From positions 174,840,001 to 174,904,000 of the forward strand of contig OX597817.1 in assembly GCA_951406725.2 (NCBI GenBank): 64,000 nt of DNA, written 5' to 3'. A program made the translations under genes and the position numbers. Position 1 is the stretch's first letter. Every line of letters begins with the position of its first letter. Under the pieces are notes generated by a model that had not been told where the DNA came from, did no database searches, and worked only from the letters and a program-made list of their open reading frames with translations. This stretch comes from Octopus vulgaris. Its lineage: Eukaryota. Positions 2,217-62,160 of this stretch are shown piece after piece.

Positions 2217-2590
2217 TTGTGGACTCCCCTCTCATCCATTACAGATGAAGTGTTCCACCATTTCTTGCTGGATAAACATCCTGCAAGAATGATTTGTATA
2301 TAGAGATCAAATGTTTGTGCTGTGCATTAATAACCAGCACAAATGATTTGTTAAAGTGATCAAATGTCTATGTTGCACACTCCCTCCTCCAAATCGATAT
2401 TGCCTGTTCAGATTTATGGTGTGCCACTTGTCAGATGTTAGAAGTGATTATAGGGCAATTTCAAATGAAGTGCTTTGCTTGAAAACACAATGTACCATGC
2501 ATTCTGAATATTGAAACCTCAATCTTGCTATCAGGAATGCAACACCCTGACCACTTGGCTGTGTATATAAATACATATAAACTTATATAT

Positions 2591-2996
2591 ACTCTTTTAC
2601 TCTTTTATTTGTTTCAGTCATTTGACTGTGGCCATGCTGGAGCACTGCCTTTCGTCGAGCAAATCGACCCCAGGACTTATTCTTCGGAAGCCTAGTACTT
2701 ATTCTATCGGTCACTTTTGCAGAACTGCTAAGTTACAGGGACATAAACACACCACCATCGGTTGTCAAACGATGTTGGGGGACAAACACAGACACACAAG
2801 CATATACACACACATACACATATACATATATACAATGGGCTTCTTTCAGTTTCTGTCTACCAAATCCACTCACAAGGCTTTGGTCAGCCCGAAGCTATAG
2901 TAGAAGATACTTGCCCAAGGTGCCACACAGTGGGACTGAACCCAGTACCATGTGGTTCGTAAGCAAGCTACTTACCACACAGCCACTCCTACACCT
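2591..2996 (-). mobile_element. tRNA-derived SINE family A (CORE-SINE-like), full copy
   Basis: Pol III A-box-like TGGCTGTGTGG, B-box-like GGGTTCAGTCCC, CORE-like CCTTGGGCAAGT, internal TA/TG microsatellite, (GTAAAAGA)n tail; about 20 full or partial copies in the window. Confidence 0.85.
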
Positions 2997-3014
2997 ACAT
3001 ATATTTTTTCTTTT

Positions 3015-3445: not shown

Positions 3446-4832
3446 TGTATAAACATATGCACACACAGACTGTCATTTGTATAGTAAAGATATTGATTTT
3501 ATCCTTTACTCTATTAACAAAAGCATTATTAAAGTTTGTGAAAGAAAAAGACACTCATATGCATATTGGTTTCAAATTTTAACATAGGGCCAGCAATTCT
3601 GAAGAGGGGCTAAGTCGATTACATTGACCCCAGTGTCCAACTGGTACTTATTTTATTGACATGGAAAGGCTGAAAGAGGCAAAGTTGACTACGGCGGAAT
3701 TTGAACACAGAACATAAAGACAGCCTGCTTGCCCATTAAGACATACTGATGTACATATGCATATGTGTGCGCATATGTGTATGTGAGAGTATTTGTGTGT
3801 GTGTGTGTTTGTGTATGTGCATGTGTATGTTTATGTGTGTGTGTGTGTCTGTGTGTGTGTGTTTGTGTATTTGTGTGTGTGTGTGTGATTCTGTGTGTGT
3901 GTGTGTTTATGTATATGTGTCTGTGTGTGTGTATGTGTGTGTGCATGTGTATGTGTGTAGCATAAAAATCTGCACAGTTACCATTACCAAATTTCACTCA
4001 CAAATCATTGGTTGACGTAAGGGTACAGCATGAAACATTTGCCCCTCAGTACTGCACAGCAGTATTGAAACCCTAATTTTTTTTAACCCTAACCATAACA
4101 TGTCTGTATATGTATATCATGCATTACAAAACAAAACAAAAATATCCAAACATTAAAAAAAAAGTTCTGTTTTTCATAGGAGATCAAATATCAAAATTAA
4201 TTATTATAGAACATAGTAAGTACAAGAAACCTTTGAGGAAAAAAACTGAAGCTTGCAATATGAGTGGGGAAGCTACAGTGGTGGCATAGAAGTTAGGGAG
4301 TACAAAAAGAAACACGGGATATATGAGCTGAGCAGTTTCTAATAACAATCTCACGAGGGGGCCTTATCTCCTGGGTAGAGAACAGAGAACTTTTGCATCA
4401 TAATATATAGTTGATGACCTGCTTGTCTAAGATGTGATAGTAAGAGGTGTGTATTTTGTGTTTGTATAGGTGGATGGATGGATGGATGTTTCATATCTAT
4501 TTGTTTTGCGTGCATGTGTATTTTTGATAACATGTGTATATGTAACTGTGTCTATATGCATATGTTTATACCGTATGATTATCTATCTATCTATCTATCT
4601 ATATGTATGTATGTATTTATATATGTGTGTGTGCACATGTGTGTGTGCACATGTGTGTGTACATTTGTACATACATACACAATTGCACACACATTTACGT
4701 GGGTGGCTGTGGGTTCACATAAGTGCATGTATGAGAGGCAGACATCATGCCTGCATACATGCAGTTATATATATATAAACACACACACATATACATATAC
4801 ATACACACACATACATTTATGCATACATTTGT

Positions 4833-5330
4833 ATCATCATCAACATCGTTTAACGTCTGTTTTCCATGCTAGCATGGGTTAGACAGTTTGACTGGCGTCT
4901 GGGAAGCCAGAAGGCTGCACCTGGCCCCAATCTGATCTGGCAGTGTTTCTACAGTTGGATGCCCTTCCTAACGCCAATCACTCCATGAGTGTAGTGGGTG
5001 CTTTTTACATGCCACTGGCACAGGGGCCAGAAGAGCTGGCATTGACCATGATCGGATGGTGCTTTTTTACGTGTCACTGGCACAGAAGCCAGTCAAGGCA
5101 GCACTGGCATTGACCACATTCAGATGGTGCTTTTTACATGCTACCAGCATGGGGCTTGCAACTATAATTTCCATTTGATATTGCTGTTGATGTTGATGTA
5201 CTTGACTCAATAAATCTCCTCAAGCACAGTATGTCACCCTACGATCCAAGGTACTTTTGAGTGGGCTGGTTATGCAACACTGGTGTAGGTTACAGCTGTG
5301 GACTCACTTTATTTTCCGGCTGTTCTCAGT
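4833..5330 (-). mobile_element. Retroposon family D ((GAT)n-tailed; GGAAGGGCATCCAGCTGTAGAAA motif)
   Basis: Related blocks at ~10705-10955, 35575-35905, 43065-43204 and 59600-59870. Confidence 0.7.
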
Positions 5331-24435: not shown

Positions 24436-25855
24436 ATTTTTTTTTTTTCAAATATTTTATTTATTCAGAATCTTTATAAAGTAAAACAAAATGTTTTAAA
24501 TTATCAAGAAGTGCAAAAAAAGTAAATTATAAATACTTCATTCACAATTTTGTATGTTGTGGTAAATGATTTAAGTTGGCATCATAAATATATGGTGTAA
24601 TGTCTATTTACTTATCTATTTACAGAGCAAATTTCTGTCTTCATAAAAACCAAAATATGCACTGTTTTGTTATCAATGTCAATTTCACTTTCTGATTATT
24701 TCCTATAAATACACATGAGGTAAAATTTGGCTGTATTTTGTCAGGCATTGATTGATACAATCTCCTATATTGTTATAAACATAAAAATAAATTGAATATT
24801 TATCACAAATGGCAAATATAAGTTATTTGAAATTACGGTCATCAACCTTCAATATGGAAGGATGTACAAGATATAATCCAAAATGTAAACACTTTCATTA
24901 TACTTACACTCCAATACTTTCATTGTTGGATACATTTAATTCTACTGGAGTTGAATTTGCCTTTCACCCTTTCTGAGTCAACAAAATAAGTACCAGCTGG
25001 GCATTGGGGCTGATGTAATTGACTAGCCCACCTCCTGCCAATTTTTAGGTCTTGTATTAATAGCAGAGAAGTATTTATACATCGAAGAGGCTAGGGAACA
25101 GAAGAAAGAAGACATGCACCCAACACCAGAGCTGAAGACACCTCCGAAAGGGGGGGGGGCCCTGCCACGTCAAAACGGTAGAGGAGAAGGGGCCGAAACC
25201 GGACGTGGTTCCTCCTGATGATGTTTTGAGCTAACTGGATCCTATAAAGGAGCTGTTGTGGTAGCAGACCACGAAACACGGTTGTAATTCCTTCCTAACA
25301 CACCATTTAATAATTACATTATTTCAGAAACAAATGTATTTATTTCTTTCAATTTATGTTCACATTTCAATAGTTACAGTCATTATCCATCATCATTAAT
25401 AACTATATATTAATTTAATGTTCAGATTAAATAATTAAACTGATGATTTTGATAATGCTTATTGATTGAAGTATGTAAAGAATGGAACTATTTCATTTTA
25501 TGTTCCCATTCAGATAATGAATGTGTTCCAGTCTAGCTTTCCATAAGGTTAATTAGAATATGTCTACAGTACTTATGTTTGTCACTTGTGTTAATTATTC
25601 AGACATATTATCAATTGTATGGTAAGAAGCTTGCTTCCCATCCACATGGTTCTGAGTTCAGTCCCATTGTGTGGCACCTTGAGCAAATGTCTTCTACTAT
25701 ATCTTCAGATTGATCAAAGTCTTGTGAGTAGATTTGGTAGATGGAAACTGAAAGAAGCCTGTCGTATGTATATACATCCAAAGTGTACAGTATTATATAT
25801 ATCCATTACAGCTGATCTTACCAATTGGTTTTGTGCTAGGGATTCAATGCAGTGT

Positions 25856-36618: not shown

Positions 36619-36669
36619 TTTGTCAAAATATTTTCGTTGCTTTAAGACCGCGACCTGTTCACAGACAAA
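36619..36669 (-). ncRNA. Minimal type I hammerhead-like motif, G3:C8 core (left arm)
   Basis: UUUGUCU GUGAACA G GUCGC-GGUCUUAAA-GCAAC GAAA AUAU UU UGACAAA. Confidence 0.5.
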
Positions 36670-36709
36670 AATCCGTGCTGTATCAGATGCAGCACGGATT
36701 TTTGTCAGT

Positions 36710-36760
36710 TTTGTCAGTGAACAGGTCGTGGTCTTAAAGCGACGAAAATATTTTGACAAA
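36710..36760 (+). ncRNA. Minimal type I hammerhead-like motif, G3:C8 core (right arm)
   Basis: UUUGUCA GUGAACA G GUCGU-GGUCUUAAA-GCGAC GAAA AUAU UU UGACAAA; 7-bp helix I, 5-bp helix II, palindromic helix III. Confidence 0.6.
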
Positions 36761-40111: not shown

Positions 40112-40274
40112 GTATGTATGTGTGTATGTATGTATGTATGTATGTATGTGTGTATGTATGTATGTATGTATGTATGTATGTATGTATGTATGTATGTATG
40201 TATGTATGTATGTATGTATGTATGTATGTATGTATGTATGTATGTATGTATGTATGTATGTACATATGTATGTA
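40041..40274. repeat. (TATG)n microsatellite
   Basis: Direct reading. Confidence 0.95.
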
Positions 40275-40779
40275 AAGTTTATTTGCCAACATAATATGGC
40301 AGTCCTGAATAGGACTATTTTACTACATTTTAACCCCAGAAAAAACATCTTTTCCAGCTGGTTCATCAACACATGATCTGTGTCCAAGTAAGGAGGCTTA
40401 CTACTCCCTTCTAGCCATTGGCAGTGCCAGCAGACCAATGGTTTCTGGTTAATTTCTCTTCTTTGGTACTGGGCAACTGCCTGCCTAGAGACAGCCGACC
40501 TTACTCACAGTATATACTTATCTAAGTGACTGTCAGCCGCTGATCTCACAAGGAGAAAAACAACTAGTTTTAATCTCTAATTGACATCTACACTGGCGAA
40601 AATAAATTTAAGACTGATGATAAAAGTTCTATTTCTTACAAAATATTTTGTTATTAACACCATACAAATTATACAAATTATTATCTTTTACACCTAATGC
40701 AGAATTTATTTCTCTTTCGAATGATGCAGACAATAACTATTTTTATACAACTTGAAAAATTCTATTGCTAAATTAATAT

Positions 40780-41146
40780 CTCTCTCTTTATCCGCTCAGT
40801 CGAAGTCGACTCTTGGTCACTCGTTGGATCAGTGTCCTCCAGTTAGTTCTATCCTGGGCCGCTTCTTTCAGATTGGCTATGTCCATTCCAGTATCACTCT
40901 TGATGGTGTCAAGCCAGCGGGTTCTTGGTTGACCTCTTCCTCTCTTGCCACTGACCATTCCGAGCATGATGTCATTCTCCAGGGATTTTCTCTGCATAAT
41001 ATGACCGAAATATGCCAATCTATGCTCTGTGATCCTAGCTTCTAGCAGCATTTTCGGCCTTATCTGCTTAAGAACTTCTCCATTGGTGAGCCTCGCTGTC
41101 CATGGAATTCGTGAAAGTCTTCTCCAACACCAAAGCTCGAATGCAC
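40780..41146 (-). mobile_element. 5'-truncated RTE/BovB-like LINE
   Basis: AFELWCWRRLSRIPWTAR; RLAYFGHIMQRKSLENDIMLGMVSGKRGRGQPRTRWLD...VTKSRLRL*. Confidence 0.9.
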
Positions 41147-42714
41147 TAATATAAGCGTTTCAAATTTACCGCAAAATTAGTTTTACATTCTGAGTTCAAA
41201 TGCTACCAAGGTTGACTTTACTTATATCCTTGTTGAGGTTTATAAATTAAGAGCTAAGGGAGCACTGGGGTTGATGTAATCAGCTAGCTCCTCCCCACCC
41301 AAATTTCAGTCTTTATGTTTATAGTAGAAAGGAATATATCTCATGGTTGGAATACTTAAAAAAAAAAAATGTTTTAGAATCAAATAAGAAGGAAAGGGAT
41401 GTTGAGGTGATGAAAGGGAAAGAGAAGAGAGAAATAGAAGAAGCAGCTGAACTGGTGGAGATGCGAAGGTGAAATATAAAGTGGAATACTTACAAAATTG
41501 GTGCTGATGTTTACTCATCTATATGTAATGCAATTATTGTTGCATGAAATACCAGATAAATTTGGTGGCTGACACTATTTCCTGCACTAATCATTCTAGA
41601 ATAATTTAATTAGAATTTAAGAAATTTCTCAGATTATTGACTGCAGAGTCATGGGAGTAAGAGCCTAATTTCTTGGAAACATAACTAATTTGATCTTAAA
41701 TAAGATCAAGTAAGAGGAAATATTTTCTGACATCTGCTGTATAGATATATATCAAAAGAAATCATTATTACTTACATCAATATTATCGTAATTATTATTG
41801 TTTTTTTTATATTTGCTATTTTTTCATTGATAGAAAACTAGGATAAATTGTTGCATTTAATAACTAATTAATTTAGTCCTTGGTAAATTTTCACTTCATC
41901 CCTTCAAAAATGAATGAAAATAAAATGGAAATAATTATGACTGAATTGTGAAAACTTAAAACAGTAAAAGTGTCTAACTGTTTAAATGGTTGTCATATAT
42001 TGCAGCATATTCTATCAGTCCGTATATATTAATATTTAATTTTCTGGGAATATAGTAAGCAATGATTTGGTAGAATCATTAAAGCATCAGAAGAAATTAC
42101 CTTGTGATATTGACACATAATATGCATGTGATATGGATCATACATTAATTCATCGAAGCATTGGTTTCACTTCAGAATATCAGACAGAATTCTATTTCCA
42201 AGAACTGGCTTGCTGTATTTTTGGCAATCACATTTCCTCATAGAACATCCTCTCAGGCATTTATTACCTGCATATATATTTATCAACTAAAATTTGTCAT
42301 GTCTACTGCAGGCTTTGCAAATCTCATGCTGGTATTTTCAAACCATTTATATGTGCAAGACAAAATTGTTGATGGAGAAACAAAATATTTATACAGCAAA
42401 TATGAAACATTTATAAGCAATAATTTGAGATCAAAAAGAACATCTAATCCAGTGATGGGAATTTAATTACCAAATCTTTCCTACAGGGTTTTTCACTTTC
42501 ATCAATATAACCAATAAATATATGTACCTGATTTGAGAGAGAAGGGAAAGCCATAAACTTATTACGGTGTACATGATAGTGCATTTGGCTGGTGGCTAAA
42601 CGATATCTAATTTGGTTCCTTTCAGTGAGTTTCATGTTCTTTCATGAACTCAGAGTTGTTGTTTTACACACTATTAATGTCTAATATTGTTTATACTAAA
42701 CTTACTTTATATGC

Positions 42715-55794: not shown

Positions 55795-56075
55795 GTGGTG
55801 GTGGTGGTTGTCCACTCCTTATGCAGAGTTTGACCACCTCCTGTACCTACACCTTAGAACCATCATGGCAGCTGATGTGGGGTTTTCTAAACCAGACAAT
55901 GTTTTGAAAAGACACCCATATAGATTGCATATAACCAATTTGGACCACCAAGAGCTGCAGTCAAGTTCTGATCTTTGTGGATCTTAAAATGTCTTTTGAG
56001 GTCTCCATTAGATTTGCAGACCTTCAGGCATACATTGCATTGAAAGGTGTGTACAAACATATAGGCAGAATAGTT
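55795..56075 (-). mobile_element. LINE (RTE-like) 3' fragment with C2H2 finger
   Basis: FQCNVCLKVCKSNGDLKRHFKIH, then a short 3' region and a (CCA)n tail. Confidence 0.55.
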
Positions 56076-56134
56076 GGTGGTGGTGGGGGGTCGTTTTCCA
56101 TGGGTTTGCAAATGAGATGTGTTTATCAGTGTGT

Positions 56135-56440
56135 GAGTGAAAGAGTGGTGATGAATAAGCACTGAAAGAATATAGGGAATGGTCAAAACAAGATGCTTGA
56201 TTGGGGGTGGAGTTGGGAGGTGGTGGGGTGTTAAAGGAATGTTTTATGAAGCCATTTGAATAGTTGACCTTTGGTAAGAAATATTTGGAAAAACATCTCA
56301 CCAAAGGTCAACTATTCAAATGGCTTCATAAAACATTCCTTTAACACCCCACCAACTCTCAACTTCACCCCCAATCAAGCATCTTGTTTTGACCATTCAT
56401 TATTTTCTTTCGGCACTTATTCATTAACACTCTTTCACTC
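56135..56440. repeat. ~306-bp inverted repeat
   Basis: Arms ~56135-56279 and ~56296-56440 (TTAAAGGAATGTTTTATGAAGCCATTTGAATAGTTGACCTTTGG and its reverse complement). Confidence 0.9.
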
Positions 56441-56689
56441 CCAACCCAAACATACCCAAATCCCATATATAGAATCACAAAACCCCAAACCCTCAGATCT
56501 GTTTTTCTCCACAAAAGTTAACAATGAATGTTTTTGAAAAATCTCACCATCCAAGCTAATAAAGATCTAACTAGATCTACAAACTAAAGTGTAAAATTTA
56601 TATTACTAAAAAATTAAAAAATAATAAATTAAACTGATCAGAACTACCAGTGAAGTCATTCTTTTTCTTTTTTAAAATATATATATATT

Positions 56690-57101
56690 AATAGTTATCA
56701 CCAAGCTAACATGGCAGTCCAGGAAAATAGGACAAATGCTGCCATTGATTAGCTCCAAGAGGCCATCGCCTCTAGCTAGCTATGTGACACACAAACCTGT
56801 GTCCATTATAACCTTCAAACAGGGGAGGTCAGCATCTTCCCCTTGCTGGTTTGACATCAACAGACTAGTTTCGGGGTAGTTGCCCCTTATCAATGTGGAG
56901 TAGCCAAACCCAGCAGGCATTACTGCTGACCATCTGTCCGAAGGTTTATTTACCTAAATTCAGTGGAATACATCCACTGGTTTTCAAAAGTAGAAATATT
57001 AATATTTCTAAATCTCTTTAAAGGAGACCACAGCAGCGGTACTGGATATCAATAGTTATCGCCAAGCTAACATGGCAGTCCAGGAAAATAAGACAAATGC
57101 T
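56690..57101 (-). mobile_element. Retrozyme-like element A: 361-nt monomer + 51-bp terminal redundancy
   Basis: AATAGTTATC(A/G)CCAAGCTAACATGGCAGTCCAGGAAAATA(G/A)GACAAATGCT at 56690 and 57051; flanked by TA runs; internal HHR. Confidence 0.7.
56858..56898 (-). ncRNA. Type I hammerhead ribozyme, U3:A8 core, GUC triplet
   Basis: CCACA UUGAUAA GGGG-CAACUA-CCCC GAAA CUAG UC UGUUG; helix I extends via GUUUGGC/GUCAAAC. Confidence 0.7.
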
Positions 57102-57113
57102 ATATTATATATA

Positions 57114-57690
57114 TAGCTATATTAAATCTCTGAGCAAGAGGTAAACAGTAACAGCACAGAATCGTAAAATATATTTGCCAACTATATGTGGTGATCCGAT
57201 AGAGGACAATGTTATCGTTGCTTTTAGCCTCAGGAAGGCATCTTCTCCAGCTGGCTAACGATACACTGTCTGTGTCCGATTAGTATTTGCAAGGGGAGTT
57301 CATTGCTCTGATCTCTAGCCTTACATCATACACACAGACCCGGATGTTTGGGTAGTCACCCATCTTCAGCATGTGATAATAACCAGCTAGTAATGAAAAC
57401 TCATTCCACTTGCAAAATACTATATGCTTTTTCCAGCAACAAGCTGTTGCTGATCTCGAAAAGGGAGAAACTAGCTATATTAAATCTCTGAGCAAGAGAT
57501 AAATAGTAACCCGGGTCTGTGTGTATCATGTAAGGTTGGAGAGGGGAGTGATGACCTCCTCTTGAAAATACAAATCAGATACAGACAGTGTGTCATTTGC
57601 CACTTGGAGGAGATTCTTCCTGGGGCTGAAAACAACAGCAACATCGTCCTCTATGGGACTTCCACATTTAGTTGGCAAACATATTTTACG

Positions 57691-57692
<2 letters not shown>
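57114..57692 (-). mobile_element. Retrozyme-like element B: 358-nt monomer + 39-bp redundancy + inverted partial copy
   Basis: TAGCTATATTAAATCTCTGAGCAAGAG at 57114 and 57472; 57511-57692 is a diverged reverse complement of 57161-57343. Confidence 0.7.
57331..57375 (-). ncRNA. Type I hammerhead motif, canonical CUGAAGA core, G12 lost
   Basis: CACAUG CUGAAGA U GGG-UGACUA-CCC (G)AAA C-AUCCGG-G UC UGUGUG. Confidence 0.6.
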
Positions 57693-57723
<31 letters not shown>

Positions 57724-61834: not shown

Positions 61835-61882
61835 CTTTGACTGAGGAGACACAAAAAGGACGAAACATTGGGTGTTCCAAAG
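61835..61882 (+). ncRNA. Type I hammerhead-like motif, canonical core, eroded helices
   Basis: CUUUGA CUGAGGA GAC-ACAAAAAG-GAC GAAA CAU-UGG-GUG UU CCAAAG. Confidence 0.45.
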
Positions 61883-62077: not shown

Positions 62078-62160
62078 TGAAATGGTTCATCTGGGAATCA
62101 AACCTGAAATGGTTCATCTGGGAATCAAACCTGAAATGGTTCATCTGGGAATCAAACCTG
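62078..62160. repeat. 27-bp tandem repeat x3
   Basis: TGAAATGGTTCATCTGGGAATCAAACC, three exact copies. Confidence 0.95.

Follow-up and report, generated by a model that had tools for sequence, protein, structure and literature searches.

The question raised by this locus is what kind of element occupies positions 57114..57510 (minus strand) of the window, that is, of the whole 64,000-nt stretch of Octopus vulgaris DNA that was analysed, and how it came to lie head-to-head with a shorter, inverted relative between TA tracts. The answer favoured here, with a probability of about 0.72, is that this element (element B) represents the decayed insertion of a hammerhead retroelement of ~350-360 nt, non-autonomous and of the non-LTR retrozyme type, that was moved in trans by a Penelope-like element (PLE). 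A non-coding unit with a central type I hammerhead fold, permuted copies of more than unit length and a shared 3' end are the observations made for B. Since B has neither a complete ribozyme nor active tandem units, the only class assigned to it is that of a decayed, non-autonomous, PLE-dependent element of the retrozyme type.

Layout of element B and its relatives

The main copy of B is composed of a 358-nt unit followed by a further 39 nt (a 1.11-mer); it is non-coding and has a GC content of 41%. In the ribozyme sense it starts with the 5' copy of a 39-nt direct repeat (57472..57510, minus strand), and repeat detection in the window placed the 3' copy at 57114..57152 on the same strand. The two copies are identical at 37 of 39 positions; they lie 358 nt apart, and their length and spacing agree with the earlier note on this DNA, made from the sequence alone. 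The main copy runs ~47 nt (57114..57160, minus strand) past the 3' end that is common to the three other copies B', A and C; this extension, present at one end only, may correspond to the PLE 'tail'. A domain of small hairpins (57161..57275, minus strand) immediately precedes the shared 3' end; it is common to A, B, B' and C and is a candidate for a recognition or priming signal.

The inverted, 5'-truncated copy B' (57511..57692, plus strand) stands head-to-head with B; it begins 7 nt before the cut and ends at the shared 3' end. A search within the window aligns it with 57343-57161 at 148 of 183 positions (80.9%, E 5e-44), with its first base 7 nt before the GUC cut position, in agreement with what had been reported for the inverted copy. 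The description of this copy as starting at the ribozyme is overstated: it begins 7 nt upstream and not at the cut itself, and a uniform stop within 7-10 nt of the cut has a 4-6% probability of arising by chance, so that this is weak evidence. The inversion junction is spanned by an 8-nt perfect palindrome (57509..57516), which is expected by chance in ~3% of cases and was recognized post hoc. A TA tract (57101..57115) to the left of B, lying also between B and A, and an (AT)13.5 tract (57691..57717) to the right of B' represent the target sequence.

Two related elements are located in the same window. Element A (56685..57101, minus strand) consists of a 361-nt unit plus 56 nt, with its 3' end in TA at 56676-56690, while element C (~40272..40628, minus strand), which is absent from the earlier note, comprises about one 349-nt unit with its 3' end in a (TATG)n tract. 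Identities are 65% for A/B (over ~350 nt), 64% for B/C and 67% for A/C, as compared to 81% for B/B'. The alignment of A with B scores 129.5, as compared to at most 69.5 in 200 shuffles, and for all six pairs among A, B, B' and C the score is higher than any obtained in 200 shuffles. Neither blastn nor a four-copy profile revealed further copies in the window, and the profile search found no tandem array of units there, only 1.0-1.15-mers. The window also holds no set of at least two tandem units with complete hammerheads, by which an 'active' retrozyme is defined. The proposal that A and B represent two related families of equal size and architecture is sustained for their relatedness and similar fold; their sizes (361 and 358 nt) are near-equal only. 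Their different 3:8 pairs and their common TA tract were both confirmed.

The units, of 349-361 nt and 40-43% GC, fall within the size and coding limits of non-LTR retrozymes (non-coding, 150-450 bp, GC <50%). The longest ATG ORF on the circles of A, B and C, on both strands, is of 47 aa, and a coding circle was rejected.

The hammerhead motif of B and the fold around it

The hammerhead motif of B (57331..57375, minus strand) is formed by helix I (57375-57370 with 57336-57331), the core (57369-57363) and helix II (57362-57349), with a predicted cut at 57337/57336. Helix I has 6 bp including two G-U pairs, the core reads CUGAAGA with a C3:G8 pair, and helix II of 3-4 bp is closed by the loop UGACUA; it is followed by AAC where GAAA is expected, and then by the GUC site. 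Every trait ascribed beforehand to this minus-strand motif, namely the hammerhead shape, the UGACUA loop, C3:G8 and the absence of G12, is present at 57375-57331. The type I order, with helices I and II around CUGANGA, is preserved in B, and 17 of 18 helix I cells are paired across A, B and C.

The complete core G12-A13-A14-A15.1 is not found in B. G12 alone is lost if U57362 is a bulge, and two bases are lost if a U-A pair closes helix II; G12 is thus missing under either reading. A bulged base after the CUGANGA box belongs to the PLE hammerhead consensus as given in PMC4209133, while the closing U-A pair is the reading favoured by alignment to A and C. G12 is the general base of the hammerhead. 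With its core broken, copy B is most likely dead, and judged by its sequence it would be a ribozyme relic that does not self-cleave. The label 'hammerhead monomer' used for B in the earlier note should accordingly give way to 'ribozyme relic', the core being incomplete.

Motif searches gave a similar picture. A strict hammerhead descriptor does not match B. A relaxed descriptor, which tolerates the absence of G12 and was composed after B had been seen, has B as its sole match in 64 kb, as compared to a match in one of 25 block-shuffled windows (mean 0.04); it misses A owing to a mismatch in helix I of A. The Rfam search of 56600-57720 at E<=10 returned four matches, none of them a hammerhead, and over the whole window at E<=1 no hammerhead is present among the best 150 of 227 matches, nearly all of which are microsatellite-driven miRNA models. 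Adoption of the hammerhead fold instead of the free fold carries a penalty of 6 kcal/mol in B as compared to 0.9 kcal/mol in A. The pair probability of helix III of B is 0.0 in the monomer; B also contains a self-complementary stretch of 8 nt (−9.7 kcal/mol; two of its pairs are G-U), in a register that clashes with the A15.1 assignment.

The related elements retain what B has lost. The hammerhead of A (56899-56857, minus strand) has a palindromic helix III and a core with U3:A8, which is complete once the published U3:A8 covariation is allowed; that of C (40472-40427, minus strand) has a decayed CUGANGA box and helix II and has kept GAAAC. A single B copy covers the ribozyme core in the window (n=1). 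A core without G12 could also be a propagating trait of the B family, carried by a non-cleaving passenger or by an unusual active variant, instead of a decay of copy B. The B repeats are only ~5% diverged, yet the core lesion requires an indel or three substitutions, and a PLE protein still inserts hammerhead-dead RNAs in vitro (PMC11167929), both of which would suit such a trait. The preservation of GAAAC at the equivalent place in A and C speaks against it, as does the place of G12 in the consensus core, the core mutants among repeats being classed as cryptic mutants in PMC3088659; a family trait is therefore quite improbable, and decay of copy B is retained as the explanation.

An imperfect rod (57281..57422, minus strand) extends helix I and encloses the ribozyme; its outer arms, 57281-57293 and 57409-57422, are the rod-like flanks noticed before. 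RNAalifold on the four sequences missed the rod, because the 5' arm is missing from B' and the arms align poorly, and an arm-swap test was used instead, with 60-nt arms on either side of the ribozyme and 300 shuffles each. The arms of one and the same element pair strongly, with −54.4 kcal/mol for A5/A3 (z −6.9), −38.1 kcal/mol for B5/B3 (z −5.5) and −45.6 kcal/mol for C5/C3 (z −4.2), values reached by 0 of 300 shuffles in each case, as compared to z scores between +1.6 and −1.8 for the eight cross-family arm pairs. The pairing of the B 5' arm with B' is intermediate (−29.0 kcal/mol, 3 of 300 shuffles).

Covariation, which rests on 3-4 sequences, points the same way. For helices I and II, taken from B and applied to a MAFFT alignment, 26 of 30 cells are paired and double changes occur at 5 of 10 pairs, a result as high being obtained in 2 of 500 shuffles and at none of the slid registers. 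When the hairpins are added the figure is 14 of 36 pairs (0 of 500 shuffles), although the hairpins came from a fold of the same alignment, which favours structure. Compensatory changes between B and B' are uninformative (one double and one single in 21 predicted pairs). Against 60 shuffles the circular folds have z scores of −5.6 for A and −3.4 for C, whereas that of B is marginal (z −1.7, 2 of 60 as good); the local 161-nt rod of B has a z of −2.1 (5 of 200 shuffles). In A, B and C structure is kept while sequence diverges. The earlier note had made its reading depend on helix covariation and on permuted or tandem copies; the helices covary across A, B and C, and permuted copies with terminal repeats are seen.

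These observations also bear on the view that a LINE or a DNA transposon moved B as a SINE-like or MITE-like repeat, its resemblance to a hammerhead being incidental. The absence of a hammerhead among the Rfam matches in 56600-57720 and the presence of a LINE-like 3' fragment 160 nt from C could be cited in its favour. It is opposed by the covariation of helix I and the rod around the core and by the lack of a tRNA gene in the window; a B box occurs in 0 of 3 units and a single A-box-like match in C only. Copies that are permuted, exceed unit length and have fixed internal ends are moreover not known as LINE or SINE traits, and this view has very little to commend it. A tRNA-derived or Pol III SINE was rejected, as neither A and B boxes nor a tRNA-like head is found.

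Insertion anatomy and the Penelope-type footprint

The 3' ends lie 223 nt past the cut in B, 175 nt in B', 178 nt in A and 161 nt in C, the last with an internal deletion. Those of B', A and C (three of four) align to one position, and that of the B main copy is ~47 nt further. All four abut TA or TATG tracts, which together with 5-nt margins constitute 7% of the window. B and B' are joined head-to-head with no TA or other spacer, and TA is present on both outer sides; a target-site duplication is unreadable inside TA.

Insertions of PLEs are described as having an adjacent inverted 5'-truncated copy, a partial tandem, a one-sided tail of 30-40 bp and a (TA)n bias (10.1101/2021.04.23.441226), with palindromes at their head-to-head junctions (PMC3846280). 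The suggestion that the tandem-plus-inverted layout of B resembles a Penelope insertion is borne out by these published insertions: B combines a partial tandem that has no RT/EN ORF, a head-to-head inverted and 5'-truncated copy, an AT-rich microsatellite target and two internal 3' ends, the tail of 47 nt, seen once, being slightly longer than the usual ~30-40 nt. In vitro, the protein of the anole PLE nicks both strands of AT-rich DNA, extends them, and starts reverse transcription at two internal RNA sites, the interval between which equals the tail; it uses uncleaved RNA as template, and insertion is independent of hammerhead activity (PMC11167929). By analogy, the two ends of B fit two internal PLE RT start sites. 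The partner PLE is not seen in the window, as no RT or GIY-YIG match was obtained among the 71 ORFs scanned out of 250 (at least 70 aa; 183 shorter ORFs were left out).

From the biology of retrozymes and PLEs, a route to this arrangement may be proposed. Source copies would give multimeric transcripts, to be cut by hammerheads that act as dimers through a short palindromic helix III and then ligated into circles. A PLE RT/GIY-YIG protein would then nick both (TA)n strands and begin reverse transcription ~175 and ~222 nt past the cut. At one nick, cDNA synthesis would start from the far site and continue through one full turn and a further 39 nt, yielding B; at the other it would start from the near site and stop 7 nt beyond the cut, yielding B', and the two products would be joined head-to-head. 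The template would be a circle or an uncleaved multimer. This is the simplest choice, given that every insertion comes back to its starting point after ~350-360 nt and has the ribozyme in its interior; barring a template jump, a 1.11-mer that contains the ribozyme cannot be obtained from a cleaved linear monomer. A linear monomer that had already been cleaved was discarded as the template of B', since B' includes 7 nt upstream of the cut. G12 may have been lost after insertion or in a passenger template, and A would be a separate insertion into the same TA tract.

The same hallmarks may be read as those of truncated pseudo-LTR remnants of an autonomous PLE, in which case no free family of small circular RNAs would be required. 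Every insertion hallmark is indeed of PLE type, and PLE hammerheads include U3:A8 cores and opposite-strand pairs 100-700 bp apart (PMC4209133). In addition, an AUG is located at A9 of the B core, 27 nt before the cut, comparable to the AUG 26 nt before the cut of the anole PLE (PMC11167929). The frame that it opens (57363-57280, minus strand) nevertheless closes after 27 codons, and the core sequence itself probably accounts for this AUG. The circular folds of A and C are stable, and in three separate insertions the sequence comes back to its own beginning after 349-361 nt, which shows a unit that is closed upon itself and has no intervening ORF. An origin from pseudo-LTR remnants is therefore improbable, and a free non-autonomous unit remains the preferred reading.

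The two arms diverge more than the simple scheme would predict. Differences between B and B' amount to 35 of 183 positions (19%), as compared to 2 of 39 (5%) for the direct repeats of B (Fisher p 0.033), and to 28 of 168 against 2 of 39 when CpG-class sites are left out (p 0.078). The direct repeats of A differ at 3 of 56 positions; against the pooled A and B repeats without CpG-class sites (4 of 93) the 28 of 168 gives p 0.003, a test that assumes A and B to be of equal age. Arms made from one RNA in one event should age like the repeats, and the divergence of B from B' is hence not predicted by a single template. Two explanations are at hand, namely the copying of RNAs from two subfamilies in a single event or the abutment of two insertions.

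The first of these may be put forward tentatively, as a possibility short of an even chance: B and B' would stem from one Penelope-type event in which two sister-subfamily circular RNAs were each primed by one strand at one start site. Copying of two RNAs in one event fits a dimeric protein that primes both strands and not fold-back self-priming. If this is true, the elements act as natural barcodes, and the inverted ends of PLEs arise by twin priming on separate templates instead of fold-back self-priming; it would also prove, at the level of insertions, that animal retrozymes are mobilised by PLEs, in a lineage whose microsatellite-targeting family switched its 3:8 pair.

The second supposes that B and B' are independent insertions, a later B having hit an older B' in the TA tract and removed or truncated its 5' part. 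The pooled comparison (p 0.003) agrees with this, the presence of A shows that the tract was hit more than once, and the B 5' arm pairs worse with B' (−29.0 kcal/mol) than with its own 3' arm (−38.1 kcal/mol). The pooled test, however, takes A and B as equally old, and with B alone p is 0.078; there is no spacer at the B/B' junction while TA lies on both outer sides, and a head-to-head arrangement with a one-sided tail is the standard form of a single PLE insertion. Two separate insertions are on these grounds rather unlikely.

Known systems and other features of the window

Metazoan non-LTR retrozymes are described as non-coding elements with type I hammerheads, expressed as circles and proposed to use PLEs (Cervera and de la Pena 2020, PMC7229834). 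The present units share with them the 150-450 bp range (350-390 bp in the mussel), the type I hammerhead order, with a short helix III in A, and a GC content below 50%; the self-paired circular fold of retrozymes is matched by A and C and only marginally by B, and the two related families of 330 and 350 bp in the axolotl genome recall A and B (PMC7229834). They are unlike them in that the copies here are dispersed 1.0-1.15-mers and not arrays and that the core of B is broken; the inverted copy, the tail and the microsatellite targeting seen here are not described in the available text of PMC7229834. A 2026 preprint by Li, Clavereau and Pollet interprets non-LTR retrozymes as non-autonomous PLEs from co-occurrence and pLTR homology in 35 species, namely vertebrates, three insects and one coral (10.64898/2026.07.22.740005). 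The conclusion of PLE dependence agrees with the one favoured here, and solo monomers are common in that preprint as well; insertion anatomy is not part of the evidence in its available text, and B falls outside its definition of 'active'.

The resemblance to EN-bearing PLEs (Penelope/Poseidon, Neptune, Naiad) includes the partial tandem, the inverted truncated copy, the one-sided tail and the junction palindrome (10.1101/2021.04.23.441226, PMC3846280), together with two internal 3' ends downstream of the hammerhead and AT-rich or (TA)n targets (PMC11167929, 10.1101/2021.04.23.441226). The differences are the lack of an RT/GIY-YIG ORF here, the tail of 47 instead of 30-40 nt, and arms that are 19% diverged; in the anole PLE the first site is ~85-92 nt past the cut (PMC11167929), as compared to ends at 175 and 222 nt here. 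The minimal hammerheads of PLEs (PMC4209133) have in common with the present ones the CUGANGA(H) box, G10.1-C11.1 and, in A, a palindromic helix III, and the U3:A8 of the Schistosoma mansoni PLE (~1,300 hits) is like the core of element A (PMC4209133); the helix II of 3-4 bp and helix I of 6 bp found here are nearer to canonical metazoan motifs, and B is without G12. The Chlamys PLEs such as MRC1 are likewise non-coding and form pLTRs and head-to-tail copies with a PLE in trans, but are algal, mostly lack hammerheads, and have a demonstrated 3' similarity to their partner PLE (PMC8557442).

The novelty claimed in the earlier note was overstated, as non-LTR retrozymes, the U3:A8 core and the link to PLEs are already in print, and as a ribozyme discovery the locus is minor, class, size and U3:A8 being known and copy B being broken. 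No description of the A/B/C family or of PLE-type ends on retrozymes was found in the open-access literature (subscription papers and repeat databases were outside the scope). What is added is insertion-level evidence for the PLE link and an arm divergence above the repeat divergence, hinting at two RNA templates in one event. The mobility of retrozymes and the origin of the tandem and inverted ends of PLEs are called unresolved in the sections of the literature cited here, and this locus displays PLE fingerprints on a retrozyme-type unit. Short and diverse families like A/B/C could be used to count inverted insertions whose arms have different templates.

Several other features of the window were recorded. 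In a degenerate type I hammerhead-like motif (61835-61881, plus strand; CUGAGGA ... GAAAC), helix I is plausible and helix II broken; the profile search shows this motif to be unrelated to A, B and C, and the free fold gives it no support. A perfect 27-nt tandem repeat of 3.1 copies (62078-62160) lies 200 nt downstream of the motif at 61841. Two close hammerhead-like box pairs at 25125-25290 (plus strand), CUGAAGA ... GAAAC and CUGAUGA ... GAAAC, the latter with a 5-bp hairpin before GAAAC, are possibly old pLTR remnants, a reading given with low confidence.

At 56132-56443, 240 nt to the left of A, a fold-back with 155-nt arms (90% complementary, 2-nt spacer) produces a spurious Rfam miRNA match. 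A 118-aa frame (55890-56243, minus strand) runs into this fold-back and carries a single zinc-finger-like motif of the C2H2 type (Pfam E 8e-4, below cutoff); the protein search returned one candidate and no homologs, and the frame is perhaps a transposon remnant. The open frame of 123 aa at 40791-41159 (minus strand), 160 nt from C, has 43 homologs among 85 candidates (best identity 67%) and resembles the C-terminus of an RTE-type LINE. A sequence of ~55 nt occurs on both strands at 36662-36760 (36717, plus; 36662, minus), suggesting a short inverted repeat element. High-copy interspersed repeat families of 100-200 nt, many of them interrupted by microsatellites, are spread over the window (e.g. 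2570-3000, 3560-3720 and 4850-5030) and may resemble octopus SINEs; the surrounding genome is itself rich in microsatellites.
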